Source: Patescibacteria group bacterium (GTDB lineage Bacteria > Patescibacteriota > Microgenomatia > UBA1400 > CG1-02-47-37). Taken from it: DNA of 64,000 nucleotides. Below the pieces are notes generated by a model. The model was not told the origin of the DNA. It was given only the letters and a program-made list of their open reading frames with translations, and did no database searches. The stretch spans positions 48,893 to 112,892 of the forward strand of contig JBBTRT010000001.1 in the NCBI GenBank assembly GCA_038065055.1, written 5' to 3'. Shown piece after piece: positions 17,166-34,645 of this stretch. The number at the start of each line of letters is the position of its first letter. Position 1 is the first letter of the stretch. The position numbers and the translations under genes were made by a program.

Positions 17166-17190
17166 AATCCCAACCGATAAACTACTCATA
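17166..17190. repeat. third, degenerate copy of the ychF 5' / att right half
   Basis: AATCCCAACCGATAAACTACTCATA compared with 18272-18293 AATCGCTACCGATAAACTCATA gives 20/22 identity plus a 3-nt insertion. The reverse strand reads ATG AGT AGT TTA TCG GTT GGG ATT (MSSLSVGI). Confidence 0.5.
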
Positions 17191-17242
17191 GTTTTACTTG
17201 ACAAACCCCCTTAATAAACTATATAATAACCTCAAATTGGCA

Positions 17243-17683: not shown

Positions 17684-17700
17684 GAAAGTATTTTAACACG

Positions 17701-18231: not shown

Positions 18232-18232
18232 G

Positions 18233-18292
18233 TTATTTCTTTATTGTAGGGTGATGAAAAATAAACCCCACAATCGCTACCGATAAACTCAT
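18233..18292 (-). pseudogene. ychF: stranded ancestral 5' end of ychF
   Basis: ATG AGT TTA TCG GTA GCG ATT GTG GGG TT.. (MSLSVAIVG) then runs into element sequence and stops after 19 aa. Its ATG overlaps the pckA TGA stop (ATGA). Confidence 0.65.
18264..18277. repeat. attR-like core, 14-bp perfect direct repeat (AACCCCACAATCGC)
   Basis: Identical to 9936-9949. Confidence 0.75.
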
Positions 18293-19794: not shown

Positions 19795-20923
19795 AATTTT
19801 TCTCCGTAAATTTCTTAATCAACTCTACTCCCGCTTCAATCTGTTCCATTGACGTCGCAAAACTCAAGCGAATAAATCCCGGCCCGCCAAAAGGTGTTCC
19901 CGGAATCACCGCCACCCCACCCTCTTCTAATAATTTCTCGCAAAAACTTTGGTCGTCTTTGGTTACTTGGCTGATGTCCGCCCAAACATAAAACGCCCCA
20001 TCCGGCAACACTGCTTTTATTCCCTGAATTTGGTTTAATTTTTCCACCATTAGTTTCCGCCTTTTGGTAAATTCCCGCCGCATTGTTGCCGGAAACCCCC
20101 CGGCTTTTTCCCAAGCTACCAACGCCCCTTTTTGGGAAAAACTGCTGGGGTTGGACGAAATCTGGTCCTGTAACGCGCTCATGGCTTTAATCAGTTCCAG
20201 CGGCCCGGCGCCGTAACCCAACCGCCACCCAGTCATAGCAAAAGTCTTTGAAAAAGCATTAATCGTTAAAGTTTTTTGATAGACCTCTTGGCTTAAACTG
20301 GCAAAACTGACCGGCTTTTGCCCACCATAATAAAAACAGTCATAGCACTCGTCAGATAACACCCGCAAATCAGGGTAATTTTTTATTATCTGAGCGATTT
20401 TTTCCAACCCGGACCGATCAATAATCTCTCCGGTCGGGTTGCTGGGCGAATTAATTATCAGCACCTTGGTTTTTGCGCTTAAACTTTTATCCAAATCATC
20501 CCAATCATTAATAAACACCGACTTCCCTCCGGCCACCTTCACCATATCCGGGTAACTCACCCAATACGGCGCTTTAATTATTACTTCATCGCCCTTATCC
20601 GCCAAACACATAATCGCCTCAAATAAAATTTGCTTTGCCCCATTGGAAACAATTATCTGTTCCGCCTCATAAATTAATTTATTTTTTTGTTTCAATTTAT
20701 CTACCAAGACTTTTTTTAATTCCGGTATGCCTGAAGATTCCGTATACTTCGTAAAGCCCTCATCCAACGCCTTCTTCGTGGCTTCTTTAATGGCGAGCGG
20801 GGTGTCAAAATCCGGCTGCCCCGCCGCAAAACTGACTATTTTTTTTCCAAGAGAACTTAACTGTTTGGCTTTAGCCGTAATCGCTAAGGTCGCCGAAGGG
20901 GTTAAGCGGTACTTATCCAGCAT
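19787..20923 (-). CDS. class I/II aminotransferase (aspartate aminotransferase-like)
   Basis: GQPDFDTP, NPSNPTG, and the PLP-lysine context SKTFAMTGWRLGY. Confidence 0.8.
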   Translation of the reverse strand: MLDKYRLTPSATLAITAKAKQLSSLGKKIVSFAAGQPDFDTPLAIKEATKKALDEGFTKYTESSGIPELKKVLVDKLKQKNKLIYEAEQIIVSNGAKQILFEAIMCLADKGDEVIIKAPYWVSYPDMVKVAGGKSVFINDWDDLDKSLSAKTKVLIINSPSNPTGEIIDRSGLEKIAQIIKNYPDLRVLSDECYDCFYYGGQKPVSFASLSQEVYQKTLTINAFSKTFAMTGWRLGYGAGPLELIKAMSALQDQISSNPSSFSQKGALVAWEKAGGFPATMRREFTKRRKLMVEKLNQIQGIKAVLPDGAFYVWADISQVTKDDQSFCEKLLEEGGVAVIPGTPFGGPGFIRLSFATSMEQIEAGVELIKKFTEKNYG

Positions 20924-22103
20924 ACGCCTTTAATCCCAACCCAATCAATTCCACTGCCCGTTTAATCGCCATGGTATTTAAGACATAAGCAATCCGGACT
21001 TGATTAACCCCCATGCCGGAAGTTAAGTAAAAACCCTCGGCCGGAGCCAGCATTACTGTTTCCTTATTATCTTCAAATTTATCCAGCATAAACCTGCAAA
21101 AATCTTCGGCATCCACTACCGGCAGTTGGGCAATCAAATAAAAAGCGCCATCAGGAAAATTGGCTTTAACCTCCGGAATTTTTTTCAGCTCCGCCATCAA
21201 AGTATCACGCCTTGCCTCATACTCCACCCTAACATCATTAAAATAGCTCTCCGGCACTTCGCCTAAAAATGAAGCGGCGTACTGTTCGATTGACGGACTG
21301 GCCAAACGCGCTTGAGCAATCTTATTGGCCATTTCCATCACCAGTTTATTTTTAGACACAAGACAACCTAAGCGGGCGCCGCAAAGCGAGTAGCGTTTGG
21401 ACAAACTATCGGTTAAAACCACATTTTGGTCCGCTTTCTTAAACGATAATAACGACCGGGTCTTTATTTCTCCATAAATAAACTCCCGGTAAGTTTCATC
21501 GGCAATAATAAATAAATCGTGTTTGAGGCAAAACTCCACCAAATCTTTTAACATCGACTCCGGATAAACCGCTCCGGTCGGATTGGAAGGATTGGTAATA
21601 ATCACTCCCTTGGTTTTATTAGTCAACACCTGTTCCAATGCCGCTACCGGCGGCAAAGCAAAATTATCATCTAAGTATGTCGGGACACCTTTAAGTTTGA
21701 CGCCTGATAGTTCGGCAAAAGTCTGATAATTAGTGTAAGTCGGTTCAAAAGTCAAACATTCATCGCCCGGATTAAATAGAATGGCAAAAACCATCCACAA
21801 CGCTTCACTGCCACCGGTCGTCGCCACAATATCCGCTAAATCAACATTTAAATTAAGACGCCGATAATAATGCAGCAAACTTTGTTTAAACGCCTCAGTA
21901 CCGTCAGACCGTTCATAAAAAACCACTGGCTCATTAAATTCCTTAATTTTTTTTAAAAAAATCTCCGGCGAAGCAATATCCGGCTGGCCGATATTCAAAT
22001 GATAAATCTTTATTCCCCGCTTCTTGGCCGCCTCGGCGTAAGGCGTCAACTTCCTAATCGGCGAAAAAGCTAAATTCTGGCTTTTATACGGAATTTTTGG
22101 CAT
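20913..22103 (-). CDS. class I/II aminotransferase (second paralogue)
   Basis: IGQPDI, NPSNPTG, and SLSKRYSLCGARLG (PLP lysine). Confidence 0.75.
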   Translation of the reverse strand: MPKIPYKSQNLAFSPIRKLTPYAEAAKKRGIKIYHLNIGQPDIASPEIFLKKIKEFNEPVVFYERSDGTEAFKQSLLHYYRRLNLNVDLADIVATTGGSEALWMVFAILFNPGDECLTFEPTYTNYQTFAELSGVKLKGVPTYLDDNFALPPVAALEQVLTNKTKGVIITNPSNPTGAVYPESMLKDLVEFCLKHDLFIIADETYREFIYGEIKTRSLLSFKKADQNVVLTDSLSKRYSLCGARLGCLVSKNKLVMEMANKIAQARLASPSIEQYAASFLGEVPESYFNDVRVEYEARRDTLMAELKKIPEVKANFPDGAFYLIAQLPVVDAEDFCRFMLDKFEDNKETVMLAPAEGFYLTSGMGVNQVRIAYVLNTMAIKRAVELIGLGLKAYAG

Positions 22104-23484
22104 GTTTTATCTTTGTCCCTTCATCAGTATCCTCGATTATATAACCTTTAGCCATTAAAGTCTGTTTGATTTTATCCGCCTCCGCCCATTTTTTCTGTTT
22201 TCGTAACTCTTCTCTTTGTTTAATTAGATTTTGAACTTGAATTGACATTTGAAATTTGTCATTTGAAATTTTTAACCCTAAAACTTGGTTCCAATCCTGC
22301 CACAACTCATTCTTATCTTGTTCCGGAATATTGCTTTTCACCATTTCCCACACTACTGCTAAGGCTTGCGGCATTCCCAAATCAACCTCCACCGCGGCTT
22401 TAAATCTAGCTGAGAATTCCTGAATCTTAACTAATTTTTCCTCGGATAACACTGTCCGCTGTTTTTTCCCTTGCCACCCACTGACAATCGACTGCAGCTT
22501 TTTCCACGCCTCGCTGGCTCCGGCTAACGCCTGATCGGTAAAATTCATAGTTGACCGGTAATGGCTGGTTAAAAATAAATATCTTACCGCCATTGGCTCC
22601 ACTCCCTTAGCCACTAAATCTTGCAACCGGACATAATTCTGCAAACTCTTGCTCATTTTCTCGCCGTTAACCTGCAAAAAGCCCGAGTGAAACCAATACT
22701 TCACAAACTGCTTGCCCGTCGCCGCTTCCGATTGGCAAATTTCGTTGGTGTGGTGCACCGGAATGTGGTCAATCCCGCCGGTGTGGATATCAATACTTTC
22801 TCCCAATTCCTTCATCGCCATCGCACTGCACTCAATGTGCCAGCCAGGAAACCCGATTCCCCACGGGCTCTCCCACTCCATTTGACGTTTCTCGCTTTCA
22901 GGCGAGAACTTCCACAACGCAAAATCCGTTGGATTTTTCTTTTCCCCTTTGTCCACCCGCCAACCCTCTCTTAACCCCTCAATATCCAGCCTAGCCATCT
23001 CTCCGTAAGTTTTAAATATACTGGTGTCAAAATAAATCCCGTCTTTGGTTTTATAAGTAAAATCTTTTTTCTCCAGTCTTTCGATCAATTCAATCATCTC
23101 CTGAATATATTCTGTTGCCGGCGTGATTTTATCCGGCTTGATAATATTTAAACTCTCGCTCATCTGCCAAAAATCCTCGGTGTAAAACTTGGCAATCTCC
23201 CGGATATCCTTGCTTTCTTTTTTGGCTTTTTTCTCCATCTTATCTTCCCCGCTGTCCGCGTTCGAAGTCAAATGCCCCACATCAGTAATATTCATCACGG
23301 TTTTGGTTTCGAAACCCTGCCATTTTAACGCTCGGCGTAATATGTCCGAGTTAATGTAAGTTCGCGAATGCCCCAAATGGGCATAGTCATACACCGTCGG
23401 CCCGCAAATATAAATACTCACCCGCTTTGGATCAAGCGGTTTAAATTCCTCAATTTGCCTTGATAAAGTATTGTATAAGCGCAT
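22084..23484 (-). CDS. cysS: cysteinyl-tRNA synthetase
   Basis: HIGH-type HLGHSRTY, the KMSKS motif, and WHIECSAM. The start was moved to MRLYNTLSR (23484), abutting the upstream stop. The 43-aa N-terminal extension in the ORF track looks like an artefact. Confidence 0.9.
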   Translation of the reverse strand: MRLYNTLSRQIEEFKPLDPKRVSIYICGPTVYDYAHLGHSRTYINSDILRRALKWQGFETKTVMNITDVGHLTSNADSGEDKMEKKAKKESKDIREIAKFYTEDFWQMSESLNIIKPDKITPATEYIQEMIELIERLEKKDFTYKTKDGIYFDTSIFKTYGEMARLDIEGLREGWRVDKGEKKNPTDFALWKFSPESEKRQMEWESPWGIGFPGWHIECSAMAMKELGESIDIHTGGIDHIPVHHTNEICQSEAATGKQFVKYWFHSGFLQVNGEKMSKSLQNYVRLQDLVAKGVEPMAVRYLFLTSHYRSTMNFTDQALAGASEAWKKLQSIVSGWQGKKQRTVLSEEKLVKIQEFSARFKAAVEVDLGMPQALAVVWEMVKSNIPEQDKNELWQDWNQVLGLKISNDKFQMSIQVQNLIKQREELRKQKKWAEADKIKQTLMAKGYIIEDTDEGTKIKHAKNSV

Positions 23485-23485
23485 A

Positions 23486-23905
23486 TTACCCCACTGCCCC
23501 TCTATTGGCTTCCCCTGTCCCCATGCTGGCTTTAGTGGCCGCTGACAAATCATCATCTTTTTTCTTCTGCTGCTCCAAAAATTTCTTTTGCCGCACCTCC
23601 GGATCAGCTTCAAACCCTGTTGTGCCGCTGATATATTTTCTCGGTTGGCTATCGCGTTTTTTTCTAATCATTTCAATCTCCTGCTGGATCGCCTCGTACA
23701 TTTCCCTGGATCTTTTTTTATCAATTTCCTTTAATCTTTCCAATTGCTGTTTTTGTTTTTGCTCATCATCATCCGGCTTTTGCGGTTGTTTTTTCACTTG
23801 CGGCGCCATTTTTTCCAACCAATCCAAACCAGCTGGCTGGCTTACCTGTTGCCCACTTTCTAAAATCTCCCCTAAATCTCCCCCTGGTGCAGTTGGTTGA
23901 GTCAT
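23486..23905 (-). CDS. hypothetical highly charged protein
   Basis: Lys/Glu/Gln-rich, coiled-coil-like. Start chosen at MTQPTAPGG, just after the upstream stop. Confidence 0.35.
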   Translation of the reverse strand: MTQPTAPGGDLGEILESGQQVSQPAGLDWLEKMAPQVKKQPQKPDDDEQKQKQQLERLKEIDKKRSREMYEAIQQEIEMIRKKRDSQPRKYISGTTGFEADPEVRQKKFLEQQKKKDDDLSAATKASMGTGEANRGAVG

Positions 23906-23906
23906 C

Positions 23907-24479
23907 TTACCCCTTGCTATACTCTTTATTCTTATCCATATCCTGCTCAATCATTTTCCGTAAATATACCGCCCGCGGCAGTTTTTTCTTTTTAGAAATC
24001 CAATCCAAATAATTCCCTATTCCCGGCGAAATAAAAAAATTAAATCTGGTATCAATCTTCTCCGCCGCGTATTCCAGCGCGTCTTTCAAAACCCTCTCAA
24101 TTATCTCACTGGTATATTCAACTATCTGGATCTTTTCATCCACAATCGCGGAAAAAAATAGCGGTTCCCGATTTTTAATATGCATTATTACCACTGATTT
24201 GGAATAATCTTGGGCCTTATCAATAATATAACCCATCGCCATGCTCGCCACCGAAGCATCCACCACCACAATATCCGCTTTCTTAATCGACTCAATCGTA
24301 TCTTGGTAGTGTTTTACCATCTCTTCGTGAGTACACTTATAATGCCGGACCGGGTCAACTTTTATAATAAAATCGCTTACCTGTTCATACCCCAGCTTCT
24401 GAATTAACTGATAGATTTTTTTAATATTATCGCCATAGTCTTTAAAAACTCTTGGCGAGGCGGTAAAATAGACTTTCAT
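23907..24479 (-). CDS. hypothetical protein: Rossmann-like N-domain plus C-terminal ribbon-helix-helix-like tail
   Basis: The N-terminus MKVYFTAS...ADIVVVD recalls nucleoside deoxyribosyltransferase-like folds. The C-terminus RFNFFISPGIGNYLDWISKKKKLPRAVYLRKMIEQ looks RHH-like. Weak. Confidence 0.35.
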   Translation of the reverse strand: MKVYFTASPRVFKDYGDNIKKIYQLIQKLGYEQVSDFIIKVDPVRHYKCTHEEMVKHYQDTIESIKKADIVVVDASVASMAMGYIIDKAQDYSKSVVIMHIKNREPLFFSAIVDEKIQIVEYTSEIIERVLKDALEYAAEKIDTRFNFFISPGIGNYLDWISKKKKLPRAVYLRKMIEQDMDKNKEYSKG

Positions 24480-24494
24480 AATAATTTTACCTTA

Positions 24495-25103
24495 TCACAT
24501 CTCCCGCCGGCCTTCAAAGGCGCGGTTTAAAGTTTGCTCGTCAGCATACTCCAAATCCGACCCGATTGGTAGACCCCGGCCCAGCCGGGTAATCGTTATT
24601 TTTTGGCTTAATTTTTTGTCGTTCATTAATTTTTTGAGATACATAGCCGTCGCCTCGCCCTCCATATTCGGATTGGTGGCCATAATTACCTCTGTTATTA
24701 TACCATTCTGCAATCTCTTGAGTAAGTCATGGATATGCAGCTCTTCCGGCCCAATATTATTTAAGGGCGAAATCGCCCCGCCTAAAACATGGTACAACCC
24801 TTTATAAAACCCGCCTTTCTCAATCGCCAGAATATCCAGCGCCTGTTCCACCACGCAAATTTTCGACTGATCCCTCTCCTGGTCCAAACAAATACTGCAC
24901 GGCGAACTTTCCCCCACATTAAAACAAAACTCGCACTCTTTGGTGTCTTTTTTTAACCTGGTTAACGCTTCGGCAAATTTATCCAGCTCGGTTTGCGGGT
25001 TATGCAGCAAATAAAAAGTCAACCGCTGGGCCGATTTCGGCCCGATTCCCGGCAGTTTTTCCAAGGCTTCAATTAAACGGTTAACCGCTCTGGCAATTTT
25101 CAT
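24495..25103 (-). CDS. recR: recombination protein RecR
   Basis: HhH motif LPGIGPKSAQRL, a C4 zinc finger (CEFC..CSIC) and a Toprim region. Confidence 0.9.
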   Translation of the reverse strand: MKIARAVNRLIEALEKLPGIGPKSAQRLTFYLLHNPQTELDKFAEALTRLKKDTKECEFCFNVGESSPCSICLDQERDQSKICVVEQALDILAIEKGGFYKGLYHVLGGAISPLNNIGPEELHIHDLLKRLQNGIITEVIMATNPNMEGEATAMYLKKLMNDKKLSQKITITRLGRGLPIGSDLEYADEQTLNRAFEGRREM

Positions 25104-25119
25104 AAAAAAAGTATAACAT

Positions 25120-25917
25120 ATGCGTATGTCTAAGCCTTTGCCTCTTATACATTTAATCGCCGATTACGGCATTAATGATCTCTCTTTTGCCGAAGTTATC
25201 CAAAGATTTAAATATTTACTGCCTGATTCTCAAATTTTTCCTCTGTCCACCCCACCTTTTTCGACTTTAAATACCGGTTTTTTAATTGCCCAGCTCAGCC
25301 TTTACAATCCCGGTCATCACGTCTTTATCTTTTCCAACACTGCTCCCCGGACCGACGACAAAAAGAAACGCTATGAAAACGAAGGCGAAAAATTAAAATA
25401 CGCCCAACTGGACAACGGCGCCGAAATTGTCGCCGTGGATGCCGGCTTTTGCTTCAGCTTTATTAAAAAACACATTGTCAAATTTAATTTAATCGACGTC
25501 CAAAATCAAGGTTCGCAGTTCCGCTCCCGCGACTTTTACCCCCCTGCCGCCGTCGGCATTTTCCTAGGCAAATATAAACAGTTTTTATCCCAACCGCTTT
25601 CGGTTAACGCCATTCCCAATATCCCTGTTAACCGGATTATGCACATCGATGGCTACGGCAACATCAAAACCACTATTCGCAAAAACAGCGTTAAATTAAA
25701 ACCCGGCACCCGCATCCGCGTCGCCATTAACCACATTTATCAAACCGGTTACTACGCCAACGGCAACTTTTCCGTCAAATCCGGCGATTTGGCTTTTGCT
25801 CCCGGCTCATCCGGTGGCGCTAACGCTTTTATGGAAGTCTTCTTACGCGCCGGCAATGCCTGGCGCGCCTTTTCCAATCCCCCGGTCGAAACCAAAATCA
25901 AAATCGAAAGTTTTTAG
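25120..25917 (+). CDS. SAM hydroxide adenosyltransferase / SAM hydrolase family (DUF62-like)
   Basis: N-terminal LIADYGINDLSFAEV and C-terminal domain motif IMHIDGYGNIKTTI, as in the SalL/FlA/DUF62 family. Its last 79 nt are duplicated at 28535-28613. Confidence 0.6.
   Translation: MRMSKPLPLIHLIADYGINDLSFAEVIQRFKYLLPDSQIFPLSTPPFSTLNTGFLIAQLSLYNPGHHVFIFSNTAPRTDDKKKRYENEGEKLKYAQLDNGAEIVAVDAGFCFSFIKKHIVKFNLIDVQNQGSQFRSRDFYPPAAVGIFLGKYKQFLSQPLSVNAIPNIPVNRIMHIDGYGNIKTTIRKNSVKLKPGTRIRVAINHIYQTGYYANGNFSVKSGDLAFAPGSSGGANAFMEVFLRAGNAWRAFSNPPVETKIKIESF
25835..25913. repeat. 79-bp perfect direct repeat, copy 1 (3' end of the DUF62-like gene)
   Basis: Identical base-for-base to 28535-28613, offset exactly 2,700 bp. 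Confidence 0.95.
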
Positions 25918-25944
25918 TACCCAAAAATTCGACAATTAAAAAAT

Positions 25945-25972
25945 TTGACAAAGTCATTTAAAGTGCTATCCT
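25945..25972 (+). promoter_or_regulatory. candidate sigma70-like promoter of the cassette operon
   Basis: TTGACA, 16 nt, TATCCT, about 30 nt upstream of the rSAM start codon. The -10 is weak. Confidence 0.3.
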
Positions 25973-26003
25973 ACGCTTACCTTTATTAAAAAATAAGAAA
26001 TTT

Positions 26004-27434
26004 ATGAGTAAGGAGTTCGCTCCCATAGCTCAAGGTTTACCTGTCATACAACATTCTCCGGAACTTCTTTCATCTACACATATAGAAAATACTCAACCTA
26101 AAGACTTGTATAAAACACTATCTGCTCCTCTTGACGTTCAAGTGGAAATAACAACCCTTTGTAATGAAGCGTGCATGCATTGTTATAATTTTTGGCGAGG
26201 AGCAAAGTTCAGAGAGGTTACCAATAATCTTCCCGATGCCACACTAGAAAAAGATAAAGTCTTAGTAATAGTGCATCAATTAGTCGAAAGCCAAGTTTTT
26301 GGGGTAACCTTTACCGGAGGAGAGCCTTTTCTTTTCAGGCAAGCAGTTATTGAAGGAGTAATATCCGCAAAAAAATCAGGGCTTGACTGTTCTCTGAATA
26401 GCAATCTTACCACAATTACTAGAAAGGATGCAGAATCTCTTAAAGACGCGGGGCTTGATTCCGTATTAACCTCGCTCCATTCTTTTGATGAAAATACCCA
26501 TAATAAAATAACCCAAAGAGAAGGATCTTTTAAACGCACTCTGCAGGGGATAAAAATTTGTCAAGATGTAGGATTAGATGTTGGAGTAAATATGGTAGTA
26601 ATGAAAATTAATCAACAACAGGTTTTCAAAACAGGAAAATTTATTAAAGATTTAGGAATAAAGGCATTTTCTGCAACAAAAGCTGTCCCTTGTCTAGGAG
26701 GAAATAATTTTTCAGAAATTGGTATCGATAAAAAAGCATTCAAGAAAATGATTACAGATTTAATTCTTTTGGAAAAAACGTTTGGAATAAATGTTGATAC
26801 TTTAATGGCTTATCCTCTTTGTGCCCTAAGCGATTTAGCAAGTTTTTGGAAGCTTGCTCAACACAGCTGTGGAGCAGGAACTACAACCTGTACCATAGGA
26901 TCAAGTGGCGATGTCAGACCGTGCTCTTTTGCAGACGAAACTTACGGAAATATATTTATTGACTCGCTTCCTAAAACATGGAAAGAAATGAAAGACTGGC
27001 GGGATGGAAGCCGTTTGCCAGAAGAGTGCGTTGACAACTGTAACTATTTTTCCCAATGCGGCGGAGGATGTAGGATGGAAGCGAAGTTTGACGGAAATAA
27101 GAAAGGAATGGATCCGTTAGCTACTGAACCTTTAGATGTTGTTTCCTTGCCGGTTTCTGACTTCAATCCTCCCCCATCCGATTTTTGGGAAAAACAACTT
27201 GTTGTTACTCCTAATCTTAGATTAAGGAAAGAAAATTTTGGAGGAATTATAGCACCCCAAAGACGCCAGCCAGTTTTTATTAATAGTACCGCCTACGAAA
27301 TTATTAATAGATTAAAAAATGCATCGTCATCATTTTCTTTTAAGGAAATTGGACATGATTTTAATTTATCGCCAGCTTCATCTGATTTCTTTTTTGCGCT
27401 TTTTACACAAGGGGTTTTTGGAGAAACTCAATGA
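26004..27434 (+). CDS. radical SAM/SPASM-domain peptide maturase with C-terminal PqqD/RRE-like extension
   Basis: CNEACMHC (CxxxCxxC), FTGGEPFL, and a SPASM Cys pattern (CGAGTTTC..GDVRPC ... CVDNCNYFSQCGGGC). The C-terminal ~90 aa are LRLRKENFGGII..FINSTAYEIINRL..FFFALFTQGVF. Confidence 0.85.
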   Translation: MSKEFAPIAQGLPVIQHSPELLSSTHIENTQPKDLYKTLSAPLDVQVEITTLCNEACMHCYNFWRGAKFREVTNNLPDATLEKDKVLVIVHQLVESQVFGVTFTGGEPFLFRQAVIEGVISAKKSGLDCSLNSNLTTITRKDAESLKDAGLDSVLTSLHSFDENTHNKITQREGSFKRTLQGIKICQDVGLDVGVNMVVMKINQQQVFKTGKFIKDLGIKAFSATKAVPCLGGNNFSEIGIDKKAFKKMITDLILLEKTFGINVDTLMAYPLCALSDLASFWKLAQHSCGAGTTTCTIGSSGDVRPCSFADETYGNIFIDSLPKTWKEMKDWRDGSRLPEECVDNCNYFSQCGGGCRMEAKFDGNKKGMDPLATEPLDVVSLPVSDFNPPPSDFWEKQLVVTPNLRLRKENFGGIIAPQRRQPVFINSTAYEIINRLKNASSSFSFKEIGHDFNLSPASSDFFFALFTQGVFGETQ

Positions 27435-28213
27435 GTAAGGATATAAATTCAAGGAAGAATTTAACAAATATAGCATTAGGATCTCAAGTAAAAGGTTTTG
27501 TTTCATTTCTTGCGAAAGACCCAAGTCTAAATATGACTATAAAGGATTTTAGACTTGGCTATATTCGAGCTTCAAAATTTTTTAAAATAAAAATTCCCGA
27601 GATAAAACTTACCCTTGTTTATAGCAGAAAAGAATTAGATAATCTATTTGGCCGTCAAACACCAGATTGGCTTGTTAGTTATGCAAACTCTTCAAATGAA
27701 ATTTTTATATTAAGTCCATCAGTTTGGGAGGAAGAGAGTTCTCATCCAAGAGATGAATTCAATAAGACCCTCTGTCATGAAATTACCCATTTATTTATTC
27801 GGCAAATTCATAACTCTTATGAACCCGTATGGCTTGAAGAAGGACTCGCTTATTATGTAGCGGGTCAAAAAAGCAGGTTAAAAAATAGCAACCCTATTTT
27901 TAATAATCCTGAAGCAATATTTCTTATAGATACAAGGAGTCAATGGAATAAAACTATTGATAGTCAGCCGAATGTGCCATATGCATTAGCGTTTTTATTG
28001 GTAAACTTTTTGATTAGGTGTTATGGTAAAGACAGGATTATAAATCTTTTAATGTCTCTAAAGGGGAGCTATAGCAAAAAGAGGTTTTGTCAAAAATTTA
28101 GAAAAATTTATGGAAAAGATATAAAGTTAATCTTAAAGAAATTCTTTTTTCGACAGAATATTAAATGGAAAGGGGGTGAGAAATATGTTCCTAGAATTAG
28201 AGAGAACACTTAG
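27431..28213 (+). CDS. MA-clan zinc metallopeptidase (Peptidase_MA_2-like), candidate leader peptidase
   Basis: HExxH (LCHEITHLF) followed 19 aa later by WLEEGLAYYVAG (third-ligand Glu context). ATGA coupling to the rSAM gene. Confidence 0.6.
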   Translation: MSKDINSRKNLTNIALGSQVKGFVSFLAKDPSLNMTIKDFRLGYIRASKFFKIKIPEIKLTLVYSRKELDNLFGRQTPDWLVSYANSSNEIFILSPSVWEEESSHPRDEFNKTLCHEITHLFIRQIHNSYEPVWLEEGLAYYVAGQKSRLKNSNPIFNNPEAIFLIDTRSQWNKTIDSQPNVPYALAFLLVNFLIRCYGKDRIINLLMSLKGSYSKKRFCQKFRKIYGKDIKLILKKFFFRQNIKWKGGEKYVPRIRENT

Positions 28214-28460
28214 TCTTGTCGCCAACAGCAGTAGGGATGTAGACGAGATGCCTCAATTTGTATCAATATTAAATGGTAATGGATTGGAACCGTTAACAGA
28301 AGCAAGCAAAAACTGCATTAGTCCTCTTCCACCTTTACCCACCCCCCCTTGTGTTGGTAAGCCACCACCCCCTTGTGTTGGTAAGCCACCACCCCCTTGC
28401 TATGGTGCACCGCCTTGCGTTGGTGTACCGCCTTGCTTTAATACTTGCTATGGTGGGTAA
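28185..28460 (+). CDS. candidate RiPP precursor peptide with Pro/Cys repeat core
   Basis: ATG at 28185 lies 5 nt after AGGGGGTGA (strong SD). The GTG at 28176 in the ORF track is less likely. 91 aa, ending PPCVGKPPPPCVGKPPPPCYGAPPCVGVPPCFNTCYGG. Confidence 0.6.
   Translation: MFLELERTLSLVANSSRDVDEMPQFVSILNGNGLEPLTEASKNCISPLPPLPTPPCVGKPPPPCVGKPPPPCYGAPPCVGVPPCFNTCYGG
28344..28391 (+). repeat. perfect 2 x 24-bp tandem repeat encoding PPCVGKPP
   Basis: CCCCCTTGTGTTGGTAAGCCACCA occurs twice back-to-back. Degenerate units continue to ~28440. Confidence 0.95.
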
Positions 28461-28534
28461 ATGGGAAAGTATGTCATAGGCGGTCGCGTCAGCGATAGAG
28501 CTCCACGGCTTTAGCTGTGAATATTTGTAAGGTA

Positions 28535-28613
28535 AAGTCTTCTTACGCGCCGGCAATGCCTGGCGCGCCTTTTCCAATCCCCCGGTCGAAACCAAAATCA
28601 AAATCGAAAGTTT
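28535..28613. repeat. 79-bp perfect direct repeat, copy 2 (orphan 3' end of the DUF62-like gene)
   Basis: Identical to 25835-25913. In the DUF62 frame it still reads [26 protein letters not shown] then TAA, overlapping the ahcY stop. Confidence 0.95.
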
Positions 28614-29870
28614 CTAAGTTCCCTCTTTCCAAGAATTTAAATACCGCTTCTGTTCCGGGGTTAATGTCTCCAAACCCATACCCATTGCTTTTAATTTTAA
28701 CTTCGCCACCATTTGGTCCAGCGATTTCGGCAACACATAAACTTTATTTTCCAGCTTGCCTTTATTTTTCACTAAAAACTCCGCCGCTAAACATTGATTG
28801 CTAAACGATAAATCCATCACATCTGCCGGATGACCTTCTGCCGCCGCTAAATTAATCAGCCTGCCTTCGCCCAATAAATAAACTTTTTTGCCTGATTTTA
28901 AAGTATATTCTTCCAAAAATTTCCTGATTGTCCGTTTGGATTTTTTAATTTTTTCCAAACCCGCCACATTTATTTCCACGTCAAAATGCCCGCTGTTAGC
29001 CATAATCGCCCCTGATTTCATTAAATGAATATGCTGCAAATCAATCACATTTTTATCGCCGGTAACCGTCACAAAAATATCGCCCAACTTAGCCGCCTGC
29101 ATCATCGTCATCACCCTAAATCCTTCCATCCCTGCCTCCAGCGCTTTCACAGCATCCACCTCCACTACCGCCACTTGCGCTCCATGGCCTTTGGCCCGCA
29201 TAGCCAAACCCCGCCCACACCAGCCATAACCCACTACCACCATAATTTTCCCGGCCATTAAAATATTAGTCGCCCGCAAAATTCCGTCCAAGGTCGATTG
29301 CCCAGTCCCGTAACGGTTATCAAACAAATGTTTAGTATCAGAATCATTGGTCGCGATTACCGGCACTTTTAGAGCTTTATCTTTGGCCATGGCCCGCAAG
29401 CGGATCACGCCGGTCGTTGTTTCTTCCGATGACCCCAAAACTCCCTTTAACTGCTCGGTTCTTTTAGAGTGTAACAAAGACACCAAATCAGCGCCGTCAT
29501 CCATGGTAATTTGCGGTTTAAAATCTAAAACCGCGTTTAAATGCCGGTAATAAATCTGATTATTCTCCCCTTTAACCGCGAACGTCGGAATTCTATAGTC
29601 TTTCACTAAACTGGCCGCCACTTCATCCTGGGTCGATAACGGATTCGAAGCACACAAAACCAAATTGGCTCCTCCGGCTTTTAAGGCCAGCATTAAATTA
29701 GCTGTCTCGGCCGTGACGTGCAAACAAACGCTTAAATTAATTCCCTTCAATGGTTTTTCCTTGGCAAACCGCGCTTTAATTAATTGAAGTACCGGCATTT
29801 GCTGGCCGGCCCACTCAATTTTCAATTTTCCGGATGCCGCTAGTTCAATATCTTTAATATCGTAATTCAT
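28614..29870 (-). CDS. ahcY: adenosylhomocysteinase
   Basis: 418 aa. [13 protein letters not shown]-terminus and the NAD-binding site [10 protein letters not shown]. Confidence 0.9.
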
Positions 29871-30777
29871 CTTTAAAATTACTTTTATATCTTTTTTTAA
29901 ACTCCGTCAAGCTGAATTTATGGGTTTGCGTCCCCTCTTTTTCCACCGTGTACGCTGCCGCCAACGCTCCCATTCGGCCGCAAACCGGTAACGGTAATTT
30001 CTTCAAATAACCGGCTAAGAATCCGGCCCGGTAAGCGTCGCCGGCCCCGGTCGGATCTTTACAGTTTTTGGCTTTAGCGATCGGTATTTTCCACTGCGCT
30101 TTACCCATTTGAAGTATTGAACCTTTTCTTCCCAAAGTCGTAATTATTAATTTATTATTTTTTAGACTAACTCTTTTTTGCAGTAACGCGATTTCATAAT
30201 CATTACCGATTAAAATTTCCGCCCCTATTACCCCCTCTTTTAAGGTTGACTGGCTAAACCTGGCAATCTGAAACGCCGGGTCGAACAAAAACCGGTATTG
30301 GTTTTGCCGGCATTCTTGAATAAATTTTGCCATCGCCAGCGGTTCTGTCGGCGTTATCGCCGCCAAATCACCTACCCGCAACTTGCCTTTTAAACTTAAA
30401 TTTTTATCTCCGGCCATCGCCCCACTGTAAAATCCCCAGATTTGATTGTCATCTCTATCCGTCATGCACCAGCCGCTGGCCGTAAATTTTCTCTTGTCAA
30501 TTTTAATCCCGCTGGTATCTGCACCCACCAACTTTAATCTGGCTTTATATTTGCCGAAATCTTTCCCCGCTGTTCCGACTACCATTGGTTTGACCCCCAA
30601 TAAACCCAATGTATATGCCTGATTCCCGGCCGTTCCCCCAAAATGCCGGCTGAATGTTTCCATCAAAAAACTCACATTGATCATGTGTAATTTATCCGGC
30701 ATTAAATAGTCTTTAAACCTGCCCGGCATGGACATTACCTGGTCAAAAGACAAACTGCCCGTCACCACTACTTTCAT
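29854..30777 (-). CDS. PfkB-family sugar/nucleoside kinase (adenosine/ribokinase-like)
   Basis: GGTAGNQAY and [13 protein letters not shown] signature motifs. Confidence 0.75.
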
Positions 30778-30778
30778 T

Positions 30779-31075
30779 TTATTCTCCCATTGGGCCTTGG
30801 CCTTTTAATAATCCTGTTAAACCGCCGCTCATTTCCGCTAACTTGCGCGCCGCGGTTTCCTGGGATTTTTTAATCGCTTTATTAATTAATTCCAATACCC
30901 GCTCGTTGGTGAGTCCGTCAATCTCCAGTGATTTTAATTTCTGGTCACCGGTTATCACGATCCTAATATTATCTTCCGCGATCTCAATTTCCTCTTGGGC
31001 CAACTGTTTTTGAATCGCCATCGCCTGATCGCGCATTTTTTTAAGTTGGGCTAATTGTTTTATTTTATCAAACAT
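30779..31075 (-). CDS. ybaB: YbaB/EbfC nucleoid-associated protein
   Basis: 98 aa with a YbaB-like pattern, in the conserved position downstream of dnaX. Confidence 0.8.
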   Translation of the reverse strand: MFDKIKQLAQLKKMRDQAMAIQKQLAQEEIEIAEDNIRIVITGDQKLKSLEIDGLTNERVLELINKAIKKSQETAARKLAEMSGGLTGLLKGQGPMGE

Positions 31076-31083
31076 TTATTCAC

Positions 31084-32427
31084 TCACCTCCGCTCCAAAT
31101 TACCTAAATAATACTTAATTTTTATCGGTCCTGCCAGTACCAACGATGCCACTTCTTCAATTAACTTGCGGTACCTCTCCTCTTCCAATCTTTCCTTATG
31201 AAACTTATAAAACACTTCTACCATTAAATATTGGTCTTCAAACCCCGCCGGCCTCGTCGCTTTTAAGAGCGCTTCCAAGCTATGGTTGTGCGGCCGCAAA
31301 GCCGTTAAAATCTCCGGCCATTTTTCCATCACTTGCGGCAAATCCACCTTCCCGCCGCTCCGGGAGCGCTCGTCTTTTGCTGGTTCTTTATTATTTATTC
31401 CCAATTCACTAATTGCCAGTTCCAATGGCAAACTCTCCACCACTGCGCCTTTAACTTCCCTACCTGCCTGCATTAACTTTCCCAGCACCAGTTTCAATCT
31501 TATCTGATCCGGAAATTTTACTGTTTCTTCGCCTGCCTCCCCTATGCCCAACTGCTGTAAAAATATCTGCCTTAATTTTTCCACTGCCTTTAAAATTAAC
31601 CCCATTACTTCCGCGCCTTCATTTAAGCTCAGGTTCAGCCACAAAAGCGCCTTTTCTACTTCCCCGTTATAAATTAACTCCAGCCACTTACTCAAATCAT
31701 CACTACTTGTACCTCTATCTAATACTTCGCTCACCCGTTCGCTACTGATATTTTCATTCTTGCCCGCCAGCTGTTCCAATATTTTCACCGCGTCCCTAAA
31801 ACTGCCGCCGCCGGCTTGCGCGATTTTCTTCAAATCTTCCTCGCTTAATTTCAGTTTTTCCCCGTCTACCACCCGCTGCAGCGACCGCACCACCTCTGCC
31901 TGATTCGCCTTAGTAAACTTCACCTGAAAACACCGGGAAATAATCGTTCCCGGCAACTTTTGCGGCTCAGTCGTACATAACACCAGCTTGACGTGCTTCG
32001 GCGGCTCCTCCAGAGTTTTTAACAGCGCGTTAAAAGCTTCGTTTGTCAGCATGTGGACTTCGTCAATAATGTAAACTTTAAACTTTAAACTGGCTGCCGC
32101 TAATTTAATCTTGTCCCGTAAATCCCGGATATCATCGATTCCCCGGTTAGACGCCGCATCGATCTCAATAATATCCATACTTCTAGCACTCGTAATCAAT
32201 TTACAATTAACGCACTCATTGCACGGCTCGCCTTTTTTTGGTTTCAAACAGTTAACCGCTTTAGCTAAAATTCTGGCGCTGGAAGTTTTCCCTGTCCCTT
32301 TCGGCCCGGTAAATAAAAACGCGTGCGGAATTTCTTTAGCCGTCAAAATCTCCCCCAGCGACTGTCTGGCACTAGCTAAATCCAATTCCTCAATAGTTTG
32401 CGGCCGATATTTTAAATAAAAAGTCAT
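31084..32427 (-). CDS. dnaX: DNA polymerase III subunit gamma/tau
   Basis: YRPQT, FLFTGPKGTGKTS (Walker A), a Zn module CxxC..C..C, and IIDEVHMLT. Start set at MTFYLKYRPQ (32427). Confidence 0.85.
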   Translation of the reverse strand: MTFYLKYRPQTIEELDLASARQSLGEILTAKEIPHAFLFTGPKGTGKTSSARILAKAVNCLKPKKGEPCNECVNCKLITSARSMDIIEIDAASNRGIDDIRDLRDKIKLAAASLKFKVYIIDEVHMLTNEAFNALLKTLEEPPKHVKLVLCTTEPQKLPGTIISRCFQVKFTKANQAEVVRSLQRVVDGEKLKLSEEDLKKIAQAGGGSFRDAVKILEQLAGKNENISSERVSEVLDRGTSSDDLSKWLELIYNGEVEKALLWLNLSLNEGAEVMGLILKAVEKLRQIFLQQLGIGEAGEETVKFPDQIRLKLVLGKLMQAGREVKGAVVESLPLELAISELGINNKEPAKDERSRSGGKVDLPQVMEKWPEILTALRPHNHSLEALLKATRPAGFEDQYLMVEVFYKFHKERLEEERYRKLIEEVASLVLAGPIKIKYYLGNLERR

Positions 32428-32432
32428 ATAAA

Positions 32433-32468
32433 TAATTTTCAATTTTCAAAACTCAATTTTCAATCAAT
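32433..32468. repeat. 36-bp AT-rich intergenic motif, copy 1 (upstream of dnaX)
   Basis: TAATTTTCAATTTTCAAAACTCAATTTTCAATCAAT matches 43106-43141 at 35/36. Confidence 0.85.
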
Positions 32469-32483
32469 TTACAATTCTTTAAT

Positions 32484-32855
32484 TTATAAATTATTTGCCC
32501 TAGATGATTTTAATATTTTGGAAAAAATTAGCAACAACTCTTGAGTCTCTCGATATAAAACTCTTAATTGCTCTTTAATTTCAGGGTTAGCTACCGCTAA
32601 TAATCTCAACCAATGCTTTGTTTCTTTAGTTTCTTTTTTGCAAATACCGATTTTATGTTTAAAATCCTGTTTACTTTCCGCTTCATTCGCCTCACAGTAA
32701 TTTGCCCCCAAAGAACCTCCGGAACCAACCAATTGATCTACAATCCTTTTATTTACAGCGGTTAATTTCAGCGTTTTAACCAATCTAATAATTTCTTCCG
32801 CTAACCTTGCAGTTCTTTCTTCCAAATCATATTTCCCGTTTGAAAATTTTATCAT
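32484..32855 (-). CDS. four-helix-bundle protein (23S rRNA IVS protein / Avd-like family)
   Basis: GSGGSLGANYCEANEAESKQDFKHKIGICKKETKETKHWLRLL matches the family signature as I remember it. 123 aa. Confidence 0.75.
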   Translation of the reverse strand: MIKFSNGKYDLEERTARLAEEIIRLVKTLKLTAVNKRIVDQLVGSGGSLGANYCEANEAESKQDFKHKIGICKKETKETKHWLRLLAVANPEIKEQLRVLYRETQELLLIFSKILKSSRANNL

Positions 32856-32904
32856 TTTATCATTGGTTATTCATTGAAAATTCGAAAATTGTAAATTGGT
32901 CATT

Positions 32905-33156
32905 TTACTTATGATGCACTCCTAATAAATGTAACATCGCGTGGCGAGTTAAGAAAGCTACAGAATGCCCCTTGAGCTTCGCTTGTTCTTTACAAATCAC
33001 AATATCTCCCAATCTGACCACACCATCCGGCCCGGGTTCATAGTCTTCTGTGGGAAACGATAATACATCAGTCGACTTATCCAACTTGCGGTATTTTTTA
33101 TTCAATGCCTGAATTTCTGCTTCACTGGCAAAAGACAGCTCCGCCACAACCTTCAT
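32905..33156 (-). CDS. ybeY: rRNA maturation endoribonuclease YbeY (short form)
   Basis: LNKKYRKLDKSTDVLSFP, LGDIVIC and the HxxxHxxxxxH zinc motif (HAMLHLLGVHH). Only 83 aa. Confidence 0.65.
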   Translation of the reverse strand: MKVVAELSFASEAEIQALNKKYRKLDKSTDVLSFPTEDYEPGPDGVVRLGDIVICKEQAKLKGHSVAFLTRHAMLHLLGVHHK

Positions 33157-33584
33157 AACGCTTCTTGCACCAGCTTGGCCACCATTTTTCCGTCTGCTTT
33201 GCCTTGGGTTTTCGCCATCACCGCTTTCATTACCATCCCAAAGTTCCGTTCCGGAACGGTACTAAGTACTTCCTCAACAATTGCTTTAATTTCAACTTCG
33301 CTCATTGCTTCCGGCAAATAACCCTTGATCAAATTTAATTCAGTAGTTTCTTTATCCACCAACTCCTGCCGGTTGCCTTGTTGATACAGCTCAATCGCTT
33401 CCTGTCTTTTTTTGGCTTCTTTACCAAGTACCGCCTCGGCTTCCTGATCAGTTAAAACCCCACCCTTGGCTATCTGGCTATTTTTCAAAGCCGCCACCAA
33501 CATCCTCAAAGTCGATACCTTAAGGCCATCTTTAGCTTTCATCGCCTGAACTAAATCTAGCGAGATTACATCTGTTTTTGCCAT
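33153..33584 (-). CDS. GatB/YqeY domain protein
   Basis: AMKAKDGLKVSTLRMLVAALKN and C-terminal GKADGKMVAKLVQEAL. Contains a 20-bp near-palindrome at 33243-33262. Confidence 0.8.
   Translation of the reverse strand: MAKTDVISLDLVQAMKAKDGLKVSTLRMLVAALKNSQIAKGGVLTDQEAEAVLGKEAKKRQEAIELYQQGNRQELVDKETTELNLIKGYLPEAMSEVEIKAIVEEVLSTVPERNFGMVMKAVMAKTQGKADGKMVAKLVQEAL
33243..33262. repeat. 20-bp near-perfect palindrome inside the yqeY-like CDS
   Basis: GTTCCGTTCCGGAACGGTAC matches the 45155-45174 core at 19/20. The inner 14 bp form a perfect palindrome. Confidence 0.85.
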
Positions 33585-33775
33585 TTAAGCTTTTTCCTTC
33601 GCTTTTTTAACCGTTTAAACTCTGACAGCTTTTCTTTCTTTTTAATCGAGGGTTTTTTGTAATACTCCCGCTCTTTTAATTCGGTTAATAGCTGATCCTG
33701 TAAAATTTTCTTTTTAAATTTTCTGATCACCTGATCAGCTGAATCTCCTGGCTGTGCCTTAACAACAATCGACAC
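33566..33775 (-). CDS. rpsU: 30S ribosomal protein S21
   Basis: 69 aa, with ...IRKFKKK......ELKEREYYKKPS.KKKEK. Confidence 0.8.
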   Translation of the reverse strand: MSIVVKAQPGDSADQVIRKFKKKILQDQLLTELKEREYYKKPSIKKKEKLSEFKRLKKRRKKLKWQKQM

Positions 33776-33799
33776 CCTAAAAACACCTCCCTTTTAAAG

Positions 33800-34645
33800 T
33801 TAAATACTTTTTATAATTTCTATCAGCTCCTCAAGGCTTAACCGCGATGGTTTTACCATCGGATTATGCCTTGAACCATTTAGAATTATATGCTTACTTT
33901 GGTGAAAATACCAGTTGGCCGCCGGGTCAGCCTTCTTCAATGCCTCATATAATTTAGTTAAATCCAGTTCTGGTTTTGGCTGGCATTTAATCGCCACTAA
34001 GTTCGTCCGCGGTTCTTTTTTTACCACCAAAGCATAACCCATTTTTTGAGCTAATTTCACCGGCCAGCTCTGTTGGCTCAGCAACCCTAAGCACCGGCCA
34101 TAAACCGACTCAAACTGGATTCCGGCTTTAATATCCGCCTCAGCCCGCGCTTTTTCCGTTAAACCAAACAACACCGCGTCCAAAAGTAAAATTCCCTGGG
34201 ACACCAATTCTTTATCATTTAATTTGCTCGACAATTTTAAATAATCAAACAACTGCGGTAAACCCAGGTCATACCGGTCATTGGTCGCCTCCGGCCAATA
34301 ACAATCTTCAAAATTATCCACCTGAGTTACCACTTCAATTAACCGCCTTAGGCTTTCCCTATATTTCTCCGGGATCTTTTTCTCCTCCAACAGCCATTCC
34401 AGCACCAGTTTGGCCGCGCAGGTCCGACCCGTCAGCTGATGATGGTCAAACCGGCCTAAACCGGTATCCACGTGAACCGCGTCCGGATCGCTATCCACTG
34501 CCTCGCCCTGCCAAGTTTGCCCCGCCGCCACAAACTCTGTTCCCGCGTCTTCCCACGCGCTGTCAAACCGCTGCAACAGCCACACGCTGGTAATCGCGTC
34601 CAAATCCGGAAATATATGGGTAACAATCAATTTTTTACCCGGCAC
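33800..34645 (-). CDS. hypothetical protein, DHH-like phosphoesterase motifs
   Basis: THIFPDLDAITSVWLL and DTGLGRFDHHQ resemble DHH-type metal-binding motifs. Weak. Confidence 0.35.
   Translation of the reverse strand: MPGKKLIVTHIFPDLDAITSVWLLQRFDSAWEDAGTEFVAAGQTWQGEAVDSDPDAVHVDTGLGRFDHHQLTGRTCAAKLVLEWLLEEKKIPEKYRESLRRLIEVVTQVDNFEDCYWPEATNDRYDLGLPQLFDYLKLSSKLNDKELVSQGILLLDAVLFGLTEKARAEADIKAGIQFESVYGRCLGLLSQQSWPVKLAQKMGYALVVKKEPRTNLVAIKCQPKPELDLTKLYEALKKADPAANWYFHQSKHIILNGSRHNPMVKPSRLSLEELIEIIKSI

Follow-up and report, generated by a model that had tools for sequence, protein, structure and literature searches.

A predicted RiPP cassette inserted between duplicated gene ends in a Patescibacteria group bacterium

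Introduction

A predicted three-gene cassette for a peptide that is made by ribosomes and modified after its translation (RiPP) is found between the convergent DUF62-like and ahcY genes in a 64,000-nucleotide stretch of DNA from a Patescibacteria group bacterium (GenBank assembly GCA_038065055.1, contig JBBTRT010000001.1, positions 48,893 to 112,892 of the forward strand). This whole stretch is termed the window, and positions refer to it unless another locus is named. On the basis of comparative sequence data, the 2.6-kb segment from ~25914 to 28534 is a horizontally acquired and self-expressed cassette, and its two ends are bracketed by copies of the 3′ end of the DUF62-like gene. A first-pass annotation, made from the letters of this DNA, had described the RiPP operon as an insertion at the 3′ end of that gene. 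The description holds: related genomes display the empty site, the composition of the cassette is foreign, and the cassette is conserved above the level of its flanks. Neither this cassette nor the movement of RiPP loci among Patescibacteria was found described in the literature that was searched.

Empty and occupied sites in related genomes

Related loci, designated here by L numbers, were found through homologues of the DUF62-like protein and constitute a small sample; the hosts are called Beckwithbacteria-like after the names of these homologues. The site is empty in four lineages, which are L009, L029, L030 and L031/L032 (79–81, 77, 76 and 71% amino acid identity, respectively, in the DUF62-like protein). 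Here the DUF62 and ahcY genes are convergent and overlap by 4 nt, and the segment that is repeated in the window is present in one copy. This is the arrangement, convergent and with overlapping stop codons, that had been predicted for a chromosome without the insert. The same junction is occupied in L008 (94% amino acid identity) and in L010–L013, L016 and L015 (75%), which represent two divergent host clades. As far as sequence can tell, whenever the cassette is present in a Beckwithbacteria-like host, it lies at this one gene junction.

When RecR, DUF62, ahcY and PfkB are compared pairwise, the occupied clades prove to be at least as distant from one another as from the lineages with an empty site (70–85% amino acid identity). 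The cassettes are far more alike. Between the window and L010, compared in 150-nt windows, nucleotide identity is 62–83% in the flanks and 96–99% in the gene for the radical S-adenosylmethionine (rSAM) enzyme of the cassette. Between the window and L008, it is 87.1% in RecR and 87.8% in DUF62, where 79 of the 97 differences are at third codon positions, but 97.8% in the left intergenic part of the cassette together with the rSAM gene. Base composition follows the cassette and not the host. The cassette has a GC content of 36% compared with 42% for the window, its GC skew is positive whereas that of the surrounding plus strand is strongly negative, and its GC content stays at 36–38.5% in hosts whose flanks range from 35 to 48%. 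The closer similarity of the cassettes than of their flanks and the constant GC content across hosts show that the cassette spread horizontally, long after the host lineages had diverged.

An earlier suggestion, that the cassette was acquired recently, stands in the sense of a horizontal transfer that came after host divergence. It does not stand as a date taken from the perfect repeats. The identity of the two copies at 79 of 79 positions does not by itself date the acquisition, and homogenisation of the copies is an equally possible source of it.

The duplicated gene end

The two repeat copies, R1 and R2 (Table 1), were recomputed and are identical at 79 of 79 positions, with starts 2,700 bp apart, as originally reported. 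In 100 shuffles of the window, not one yielded even a single repeat match at three or fewer mismatches. The repeat can be extended to 82 nt with one mismatch, and blastn carries it to ~89 nt with two mismatches and one gap. No other direct repeat of at least 30 nt, with a spacing of up to 10 kb and an identity above 88%, is found in the whole window. The stretch of perfect identity ends at true mismatches, G/T at 25834/28534 and T/C at 25914/28614.

The target gene encodes a DUF62-like protein with matches to Pfam SAM_HAT_C and SAM_HAT_N that are just under the cut-off. Its homologues, with 62–94% identity, are named SAM hydroxide adenosyltransferase or S-adenosylmethionine hydrolase and come from Beckwithbacteria and other Patescibacteria. 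A codon comparison agrees with the first reading of the two copies, in which R1 is the real 3′ end of the gene and R2 an in-frame orphan. Read in the same frame as R1, R2 specifies the identical 26 residues followed by a stop, with TTC TAA in place of the TTT TAG of R1. An in-frame TAA at 28534–28536 closes R2 upstream. At its other end R2 reaches the ahcY stop codon, also as first described: the last base of the copy is 28613, the ahcY stop at 28614–28616 reads TAG on the minus strand, and the orphan TAA of R2 is at 28615–28617. From these positions, the removal of one repeat together with the insert leaves a 4-nt CTAA overlap of the DUF62 and ahcY stops.

Two further features of the repeat were considered and rejected. 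A longer, decayed DUF62 pseudogene upstream of R2 was looked for by aligning the spacer at 28461–28534 with the part of DUF62 that precedes R1, both that of the window and those of six relatives; the score is at the level of shuffled sequence. As the spacer has no significant similarity to this part of DUF62, the left boundary of the repeat is sharp. A GC-rich hairpin at 25846–25868 was a candidate for a common recombination site, but it is outside the part of the repeat that is held in common with the L015 and L010 alleles.

The cassette encodes a SAM-consuming enzyme and is within a neighbourhood of SAM and adenosine salvage (25120–30777), with the SAM hydrolase-like gene, S-adenosylhomocysteine hydrolase and a PfkB-family kinase. 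A functional tie between this neighbourhood and the rSAM cassette does not hold as a rule, since homologous cassettes are present in unrelated neighbourhoods, and the association may be a coincidence.

Integrity of the assembly

A perfect repeat of 79 bp calls for caution, as 79 is a default k value of MEGAHIT. The concern had been raised that the structure is a mis-join: the chromosome would be empty (DUF62-R-ahcY), and the cassette, present as a separate 2.7-kb circle or in another strain, would have been joined to it via a k-length word. The coincidence of repeat length and k is consistent with this, and so is the state of the Logan assemblies made at k = 31, where the cassette forms a separate contig bounded by 30 nt of repeat at each end (L004–L007) and the ahcY contig L002 stops 30 nt into the repeat. 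These breakpoints also indicate that the assembly graph holds a cycle that is unresolvable at short k, which is the behaviour expected of a real repeat. When public assemblies were searched for an empty-site allele of this strain, the contigs retrieved were all either occupied or interrupted at the repeat.

The independent assemblies answer the concern. In the window, identity stops at genuine mismatches on both sides and not at contig ends. A second assembly, GCA_964364255.1 (L001/L003), represents essentially the same strain, with one mismatch in 14 kb, and has the same integrated structure with two perfect repeat copies 2,700 bp apart. The L003 record is a scaffold with a 100-N gap and 55-nt overlaps, and is thus an assembly other than that of the window. 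L008, from a strain with 12% divergence in the flanks, is a contig termed k139_... that reads across the left junction. Both junctions are spanned, with repeats that are not identical, in L010–L013 and L016 (Rifle scaffolds) and in L015. Relatives with diverged repeats cannot confuse the assembly graph, and together with the second assembly they effectively exclude a mis-join at k = 79. We regard an artefact as highly improbable, and even then the cassette would be the excised form of the same element.

The gap in L003 (14065–14164, corresponding to window ~32364) is flanked by the duplicated 55-nt overlap and is located inside dnaX. It truncates the DnaX protein called in that record to 364 amino acids, compared with 452; the window is continuous at this position.

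Content of the cassette

The features of the cassette and its junctions are listed in Table 1. The first-pass annotation had noted that the cassette carries its own candidate promoter and no recombinase, and both a promoter scan and a Pfam search of the open reading frames (ORFs) agree. The long ORFs are limited to an rSAM/SPASM enzyme, a Peptidase_MA_2 protein and a precursor with Cys/Pro repeats, and none encodes a recombinase. The promoter-like site is kept in the cassette copies of L008, L010, L017, L034 and L036.

The translation of the maturase contains the motif CNEACMHC, of the CX3CX2C form, and the closest solved structures are MoaA and SkfB. Its amino acid sequence is 95–96% identical in L010 and L015 and 80% identical in a Levybacteria metagenome-assembled genome (MAG). 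The Peptidase_MA_2 protein is likely the leader peptidase. In an alignment of the precursor from six loci, the leader motif and the Cys positions are invariant. The core of the precursor is partly formed by two identical 24-nt tandem units (28344–28391), each translated as PPCVGKPP. The Logan contig L004, from sample ERR3858128, lacks exactly one of these units, which shows that the repeat number of the core is polymorphic between samples.

Table 1. Features of the RiPP cassette and of its two junctions in the window
Feature	Position	Strand	Basis or remark
SAM hydroxide adenosyltransferase / DUF62-like gene, 265 aa	25120..25917	+	ORF; target gene
R1, repeat copy 1: last 26 codons, functional 3′ end of DUF62-like gene	25835..25913	+	
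Left junction: last base of Phe codon, TAG stop, TACCC; diverged continuation of repeat	25914..25922	+	same junction in L008
Sigma-70-like promoter, TTGACA-16-(TG)TATCCT	25945..25972	+	promoter scan; predicted
Radical SAM / SPASM maturase, 476 aa	26004..27434	+	Pfam Radical_SAM 1.2e-24; SPASM and Fer4_12 above cut-off
Peptidase_MA_2 (HExxH-type) protein, 260 aa	27431..28213	+	Pfam 5.7e-11
Precursor peptide, 91 aa from ATG	28185..28460	+	leader motif PQFVSILNG; core of PPPPC(V/Y)G repeats
Terminator-like hairpin that closes the cassette	28504..28519	+	inside 74-nt spacer 28461-28534 before R2
R2, repeat copy 2: orphan DUF62 3′ end	28535..28613	+	abuts ahcY stop
ahcY, S-adenosyl-L-homocysteine hydrolase, convergent right neighbour	28614..29870	-	Pfam AdoHcyase 2.4e-62

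Known RiPP clusters of the rSAM/SPASM type (sactipeptide/ranthipeptide-type, SkfB, AlbA) likewise consist of a SPASM enzyme, an adjacent Cys-rich precursor with a leader, and a peptidase. The present cluster differs from the curated families. The maturase, peptidase and precursor have no NCBIfam match at cut-off; the best models (NirJ2, AhbD and GeoRSP) score far below it, and the PPPPC(V/Y)G core repeats of the precursor match no Pfam or NCBIfam model. Judged by its gene content, the cassette carries a genuine RiPP-type cluster with an rSAM/SPASM enzyme, and the family to which this cluster belongs is uncurated.

The ends of the cassette do not have significant terminal inverted repeats, as 13% of shuffled sequences score equally well, and no Rfam RNA family was detected in 24000–30500 at E ≤ 0.1. 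A transposon or insertion sequence was rejected as a description of the element: there is no transposase, the ends are not significantly inverted, and the repeat lengths at the different loci are 37, 74, 79, at least 90 and ~240 nt. An integron gene cassette was rejected as well, since the element has its own promoter and three genes, and no intI is present among the neighbouring ORFs that were identified.

Related cassettes at other gene ends

Homologues of the rSAM protein occur throughout Patescibacteria, and in several cases the cassette is again bracketed by a duplicated gene end. In the Levybacteria MAG (L034/L035, the 80% homologue), the cassette extends from the -35 hexamer to 2 nt beyond the precursor stop. 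The flanking repeat (L034 6906–6942 and 9451–9487) is 37 nt long with 84% identity, including 21 nt that match exactly, and represents the 3′ end of an upstream DUF5676 gene. L022, with 36% identity in the rSAM protein, has a repeat of at least 90 nt at 91% identity (1–90 and 2848–2937), which consists of the end of an unnamed upstream gene and a terminator stem. In L025 (38% rSAM identity), a repeat of ~240 nt at ~85% identity (~91–331 and ~5018–5260) is made up of the 3′ end of pheT (FDX-ACB domain), its terminator and the downstream promoter; it brackets a 4.9-kb cassette with rSAM, M16 and MA-peptidase genes.

At L017/L018, where a further homologue is found (82% rSAM identity), the cassette is directly followed on its right by an orphaned piece of a class II aminoacyl-tRNA synthetase, from the C-terminal part of that enzyme (L017 8729–9076, also in L018; Pfam tRNA-synt_2 positions 207–307 of 308). 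The neighbourhood of the L017 cassette is unrelated to that of the window and contains response regulators and type IV pilus genes.

Repeat alleles and recombination joints

All copies of the Beckwithbacteria type share a conserved core, which begins at GTACCCA... (window 25918) and continues to just beyond the precursor stop (~28470). Outside the core, the window and L008 are of one type and L010 and L015 of another, and the two types differ on both sides, the spacer on the right being a different one in L010 and L015. The perfect repeat of the window covers -79 to approximately +3/+10 relative to the stop codon. The L015 repeat is 74 nt at 95% identity; 47 nt of it come from the end of DUF62, followed by the stop codon, and 27 nt from the end of ahcY. 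In L010 the repeat is divided into 41 nt at 93% and 30 nt at 87%, and the left copy has a 20-nt insertion right after the DUF62 stop. The duplicated segment straddles the DUF62/ahcY junction in all alleles compared, and its boundaries are not fixed. Such variation between alleles speaks against a transposase of fixed stagger or a fixed core of an attachment (att) site.

An extra left segment of ~150 nt is found in L010 (6797–6960) and L015 (62–215) and is absent from the window and L008. It contains a fragment similar to the ahcY 3′ end and a further degenerate piece similar to the DUF62 end, CAAATCTGAAAGTTTC. The left junction of L010 and L015 looks like a set of nested scars from repeated recombination at the DUF62/ahcY site.

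Several joints between sequences of different origin can be located. The window and L008 differ at six positions of R1, all within 25842–25884, and identity at the level of the cassette (~98%) starts at 25885. This switch places a recombination joint inside R1. R2 of the window carries the window-specific alleles at these six sites; the copies were therefore made identical within the lineage of the window, either by a recent event with local sequence or by homogenisation. L015 and L016 have 100% identical DNA throughout ahcY and PfkB until ~85 nt before the ahcY stop. Beyond this point they differ, in the last stretch of ahcY, in the repeats and in the cassette with its peptidase gene, which shows that one allele replaced another through homologous recombination and that the crossover was in the 3′ end of ahcY. 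The Peptidase_MA_2 gene is a mosaic. Its segment at 27345–27794 is 65–87% identical to L010, compared with 90–99% for the rest of the cassette. The L015 peptidase is similar to that of the window (97% of amino acids) and that of L010 is not (75%), yet the L015 ahcY product is 99% identical to that of L010. The mosaic structure signifies recombination among cassette variants. As read from these breakpoints, homologous recombination in the flanking genes has demonstrably carried some of the spread of the cassette, a process that the first-pass annotation did not consider.

The differences between repeat copies are also informative. Summed over all loci, 19 of 21 codon differences between the copies are synonymous and two are non-synonymous. 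The synonymous and non-synonymous counts are 2/0 in the window, 4/0 in L015, 4/0 in L010, 2/0 in L034, 4/1 in L022 and 3/1 in L025. With 28% of changes expected to be synonymous, the binomial probability is ~4e-9, or ~4e-7 when L010, which is not independent, is left out. The L025 repeat has a terminator hairpin inside it with a compensatory change. A decaying orphan would gain mostly non-synonymous changes and indels, so that the 19 of 21 synonymous differences make the copies look like functional gene ends from different lineages. Between L010 and L015, the alleles of a Lys codon (AAA/AAG) and of the stop codon (TAA/TAG) are swapped between R1 and R2, which points to reciprocal exchange and not to one-way conversion. 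The repeats are, by this codon evidence, orthologous gene ends and not a target duplication of fixed length.

An explanation that relies less on mobility is that of a single old illegitimate insertion with a local duplication. The cassette would have been inherited vertically with losses, recombination in the flanks would be the sole means of exchange, the repeats would have no part in mobility, and the 79 bp would be perfect owing to gene conversion. Flank-recombination breakpoints are seen directly, and L008, with flanks ~88% identical to those of the window, has exactly the same left junction. Gene conversion would also account for the window-specific alleles of R2 at the six sites where R1 differs from L008. 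The locus moreover fits a minimal mobile element as this is defined, with variable content lying between conserved flanking genes (PMC3787668). Three observations weigh against an old insertion. The window/L008 and L010/L015 types differ on both sides of the core, so that later rearrangements are needed; homologous cassettes at three further targets are again bracketed by duplicated gene ends, which would not be expected of an isolated accident; and R1 and R2 have exchanged alleles reciprocally, unlike the outcome of one-way conversion. On balance, we consider this explanation rather unlikely.

A proposed route of insertion and spread

The model that we favour, with about even confidence, is a composite one. 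The cassette would insert by insertion-duplication via a borrowed gene-end handle, independently of a recombinase, and would then spread by homologous recombination in the flanks. Incoming DNA would bear the cassette beside a copy of the DUF62 3′ end, termed the handle, and this would recombine with the resident gene end. The crossover could be made by RecA-type functions of the host, either as a Campbell-type single crossover of a circle or as an ends-in event with the circle opened in the handle. The left repeat copy would then complete the DUF62 gene and the right copy would stay as an orphan against ahcY. Only handles that include the 3′ end of a gene keep that gene intact, which would explain the recurrent geometry.

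Campbell-type insertion-duplication of circular DNA is used for mutagenesis in naturally transformable bacteria. It has the same product, in which the insert is placed between two copies of the target segment and the upstream gene is intact if its 3′ end is included. The locus in the window fits this pattern: the repeat is the segment that is single at the empty site, an intact gene ends in its left copy, and its right copy is an orphan. The laboratory process employs engineered plasmids; in contrast, the events considered here are natural and recurrent, with homology down to 37–90 nt.

Once established, the cassette would pass between lineages that already have the flanks in common by two crossovers, one in DUF62 and one in ahcY; the DNA would most plausibly enter by natural transformation. 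The breakpoints in the flanks are seen in the alignments, and the route of uptake is one that we infer. Experiments have demonstrated natural competence in Saccharibacteria, which belong to the Patescibacteria (PMC10633639). The repeat copies would go on recombining with each other or with orthologous gene ends, and continued recombination of this kind would explain both the perfect identity in the window and the prevalence of synonymous-only differences elsewhere. Recombination between the repeats would free a 2,700-bp circle with one repeat and the cassette and would restore the empty site, and precise loss through the repeats is plausible.

Several points weigh against the handle model. RecA-type recombination over 37–90 nt at 84–95% identity is inefficient. 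The assemblies of this strain showed neither a circular intermediate nor an allele with an empty site nor a junction left by excision. The model leaves the first capture of a handle for a new target unexplained. The synonymous pattern could also result from a later overwriting of either copy through recombination with orthologous DNA, and is no proof that a handle came in together with the cassette. Two of the homologous cassettes do not display the architecture: L017/L018 has a repeat of 20 nt only, and in L036 (74% rSAM identity) the cassette is between tRNA clusters and has no flanking repeat. Recombinases acting in trans are possible as well, given a serine recombinase and a Y1 transposase-like gene in the window. 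With respect to L017, the orphan synthetase fragment may represent a handle carried over from an earlier insertion site.

Extended to the phylum, the handle model would represent an undescribed, recombinase-free route for accessory operons in Patescibacteria. An operon would travel with the borrowed 3′ end of a conserved gene, sometimes together with a terminator or promoter, integrate beside the orthologous gene of a new host by that host's homologous recombination, with the gene regenerated and an orphan end left over, and later be excised as a circle by way of the same repeats. This is put forward tentatively, as a possibility that is less probable than not. If it is true, the route would have its first known passenger in the rSAM RiPP cassette family, with handles from DUF62, DUF5676, pheT and at least one other gene.

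Comparison with elements mobilized in trans

A rival proposal is site-specific integration by a recombinase supplied in trans. The cassette would be a decayed element related to the cis-mobilizable elements (CIMEs), with the repeats representing attL and attR and with an attP that contains a mimic of the DUF62 3′ end. The locus has the classic signature, i.e., the 3′ end of a conserved gene as target, regeneration of that end, and direct repeats around a cargo without an integrase. CIMEs of 1.2–13 kb with cargo are documented at the 3′ ends of fda, rpsI and rpmG (PMC7563491, PMC6323972). These and other decayed integrative elements, e.g., of the ICESt3 family in streptococci, likewise consist of a small integrase-less cargo beside a conserved protein-coding gene; the 3′ end of this gene is part of the flanking direct repeats, and the gene is kept intact by an end that the element supplies (PMC7563491, PMC6323972). 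Occupation of the same site in two divergent host clades is in keeping with such a mechanism, an attP gene-end mimic also predicts synonymous differences between the copies, and recombinase genes are present elsewhere in the window.

The differences from CIMEs are considerable. No integrase-bearing element at the DUF62/ahcY site and no tandem partner was found in ~10 related loci, a search that is far from exhaustive. The repeat boundaries vary between alleles, the repeats range from 37 to ~240 nt, and identity is spread over 40–240 nt with no short fixed core. Homologous cargo is found between duplicated ends of three unrelated genes, which would call for several different integrases, each of them lost. 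The site, in a Patescibacterium, is not known to hold an integrative conjugative element. In addition, neither the conserved repeat core nor a relative of the rSAM protein was found in the viral contigs searched, and cassette DNA has no match in the plasmid and phage collections; a phage or plasmid origin was rejected. Large serine recombinases and Y1 transposases, the types present in the window, are not known to make long direct repeats. Integration by a trans-acting enzyme is thus judged to be unlikely.

The minimal mobile elements of Neisseria (Saunders & Snyder 2002; Snyder et al. 2007; described in PMC3787668) are similar to the cassette in another respect. They too are present or absent between the same conserved genes, have no mobility genes and are exchanged by homologous recombination in the flanks in a (probably) competent organism. 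The locus in the window and its relatives share these properties: content varies between the same flanks, breakpoints are located in the flanks, and mobility genes are lacking. Minimal mobile elements, however, are by definition without flanking direct repeats, whereas here a duplicated gene end brackets the cassette and recurs at other loci.

Implications for accessory genes in Patescibacteria

In the tiny genomes of Patescibacteria, also termed the candidate phyla radiation (CPR), mobile elements have seldom been recognised, and secondary metabolism in this group has hardly been studied by experiment. Of interest is that a complete, self-promoted RiPP operon moves between lineages whose housekeeping genes are only 70–88% identical, and does so without a recombinase of its own. 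The duplicated-gene-end architecture, found at four targets, may serve as a sequence signature for the detection of recently acquired cassettes in CPR genomes. It also provides a testable hypothesis on how accessory genes are gained and lost in ultra-small bacteria that are competent and proficient in recombination. The RiPP family itself, uncharacterised and with PPPPC(V/Y)G-repeat precursors, appears to be under frequent horizontal exchange and allelic shuffling. A gene-end repeat beside a genomic islet is unsurprising to a specialist; it is the recombinase-free, recurrent and multi-target pattern in CPR genomes, together with the traffic of RiPP cassettes, that is worth pursuing.

Other features of the window

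A block of ~8.3 kb (9906–18297) is headed by a gene for a large serine recombinase of 558 amino acids (9906–11582, minus strand) with Resolvase, Recombinase and Zn_ribbon_recom domains. Three scanned ORFs in the block (11893–13272, 14073–15101 and 15105–15941) have no Pfam match. The block is bounded by an imperfect 34-nt direct repeat with 79% identity (9936–9969 and 18264–18297), the left copy of which overlaps the 5′ end of a YchF-like gene. It probably represents a separate integrated element.

A Y1_Tnp gene, of the IS200-like or RAYT-like type, is found at 41354–42040 on the plus strand and encodes 228 amino acids. Four palindromic copies similar to repetitive extragenic palindromic (REP) sequences (GCCTTCCGGGAGACTCCCGGAAGGC) are present around this gene or overlap it, within 41294–42080.

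Plus-strand GC skew outside the cassette is strongly negative in the part that was profiled (20000–35000). Essentially all ORFs of at least 130 amino acids in 5361–64000, unless nested in a longer minus-strand ORF, are on the minus strand. The exceptions on the plus strand are the DUF62-like gene, the cassette, which is oriented in the same direction, and the Y1_Tnp gene.

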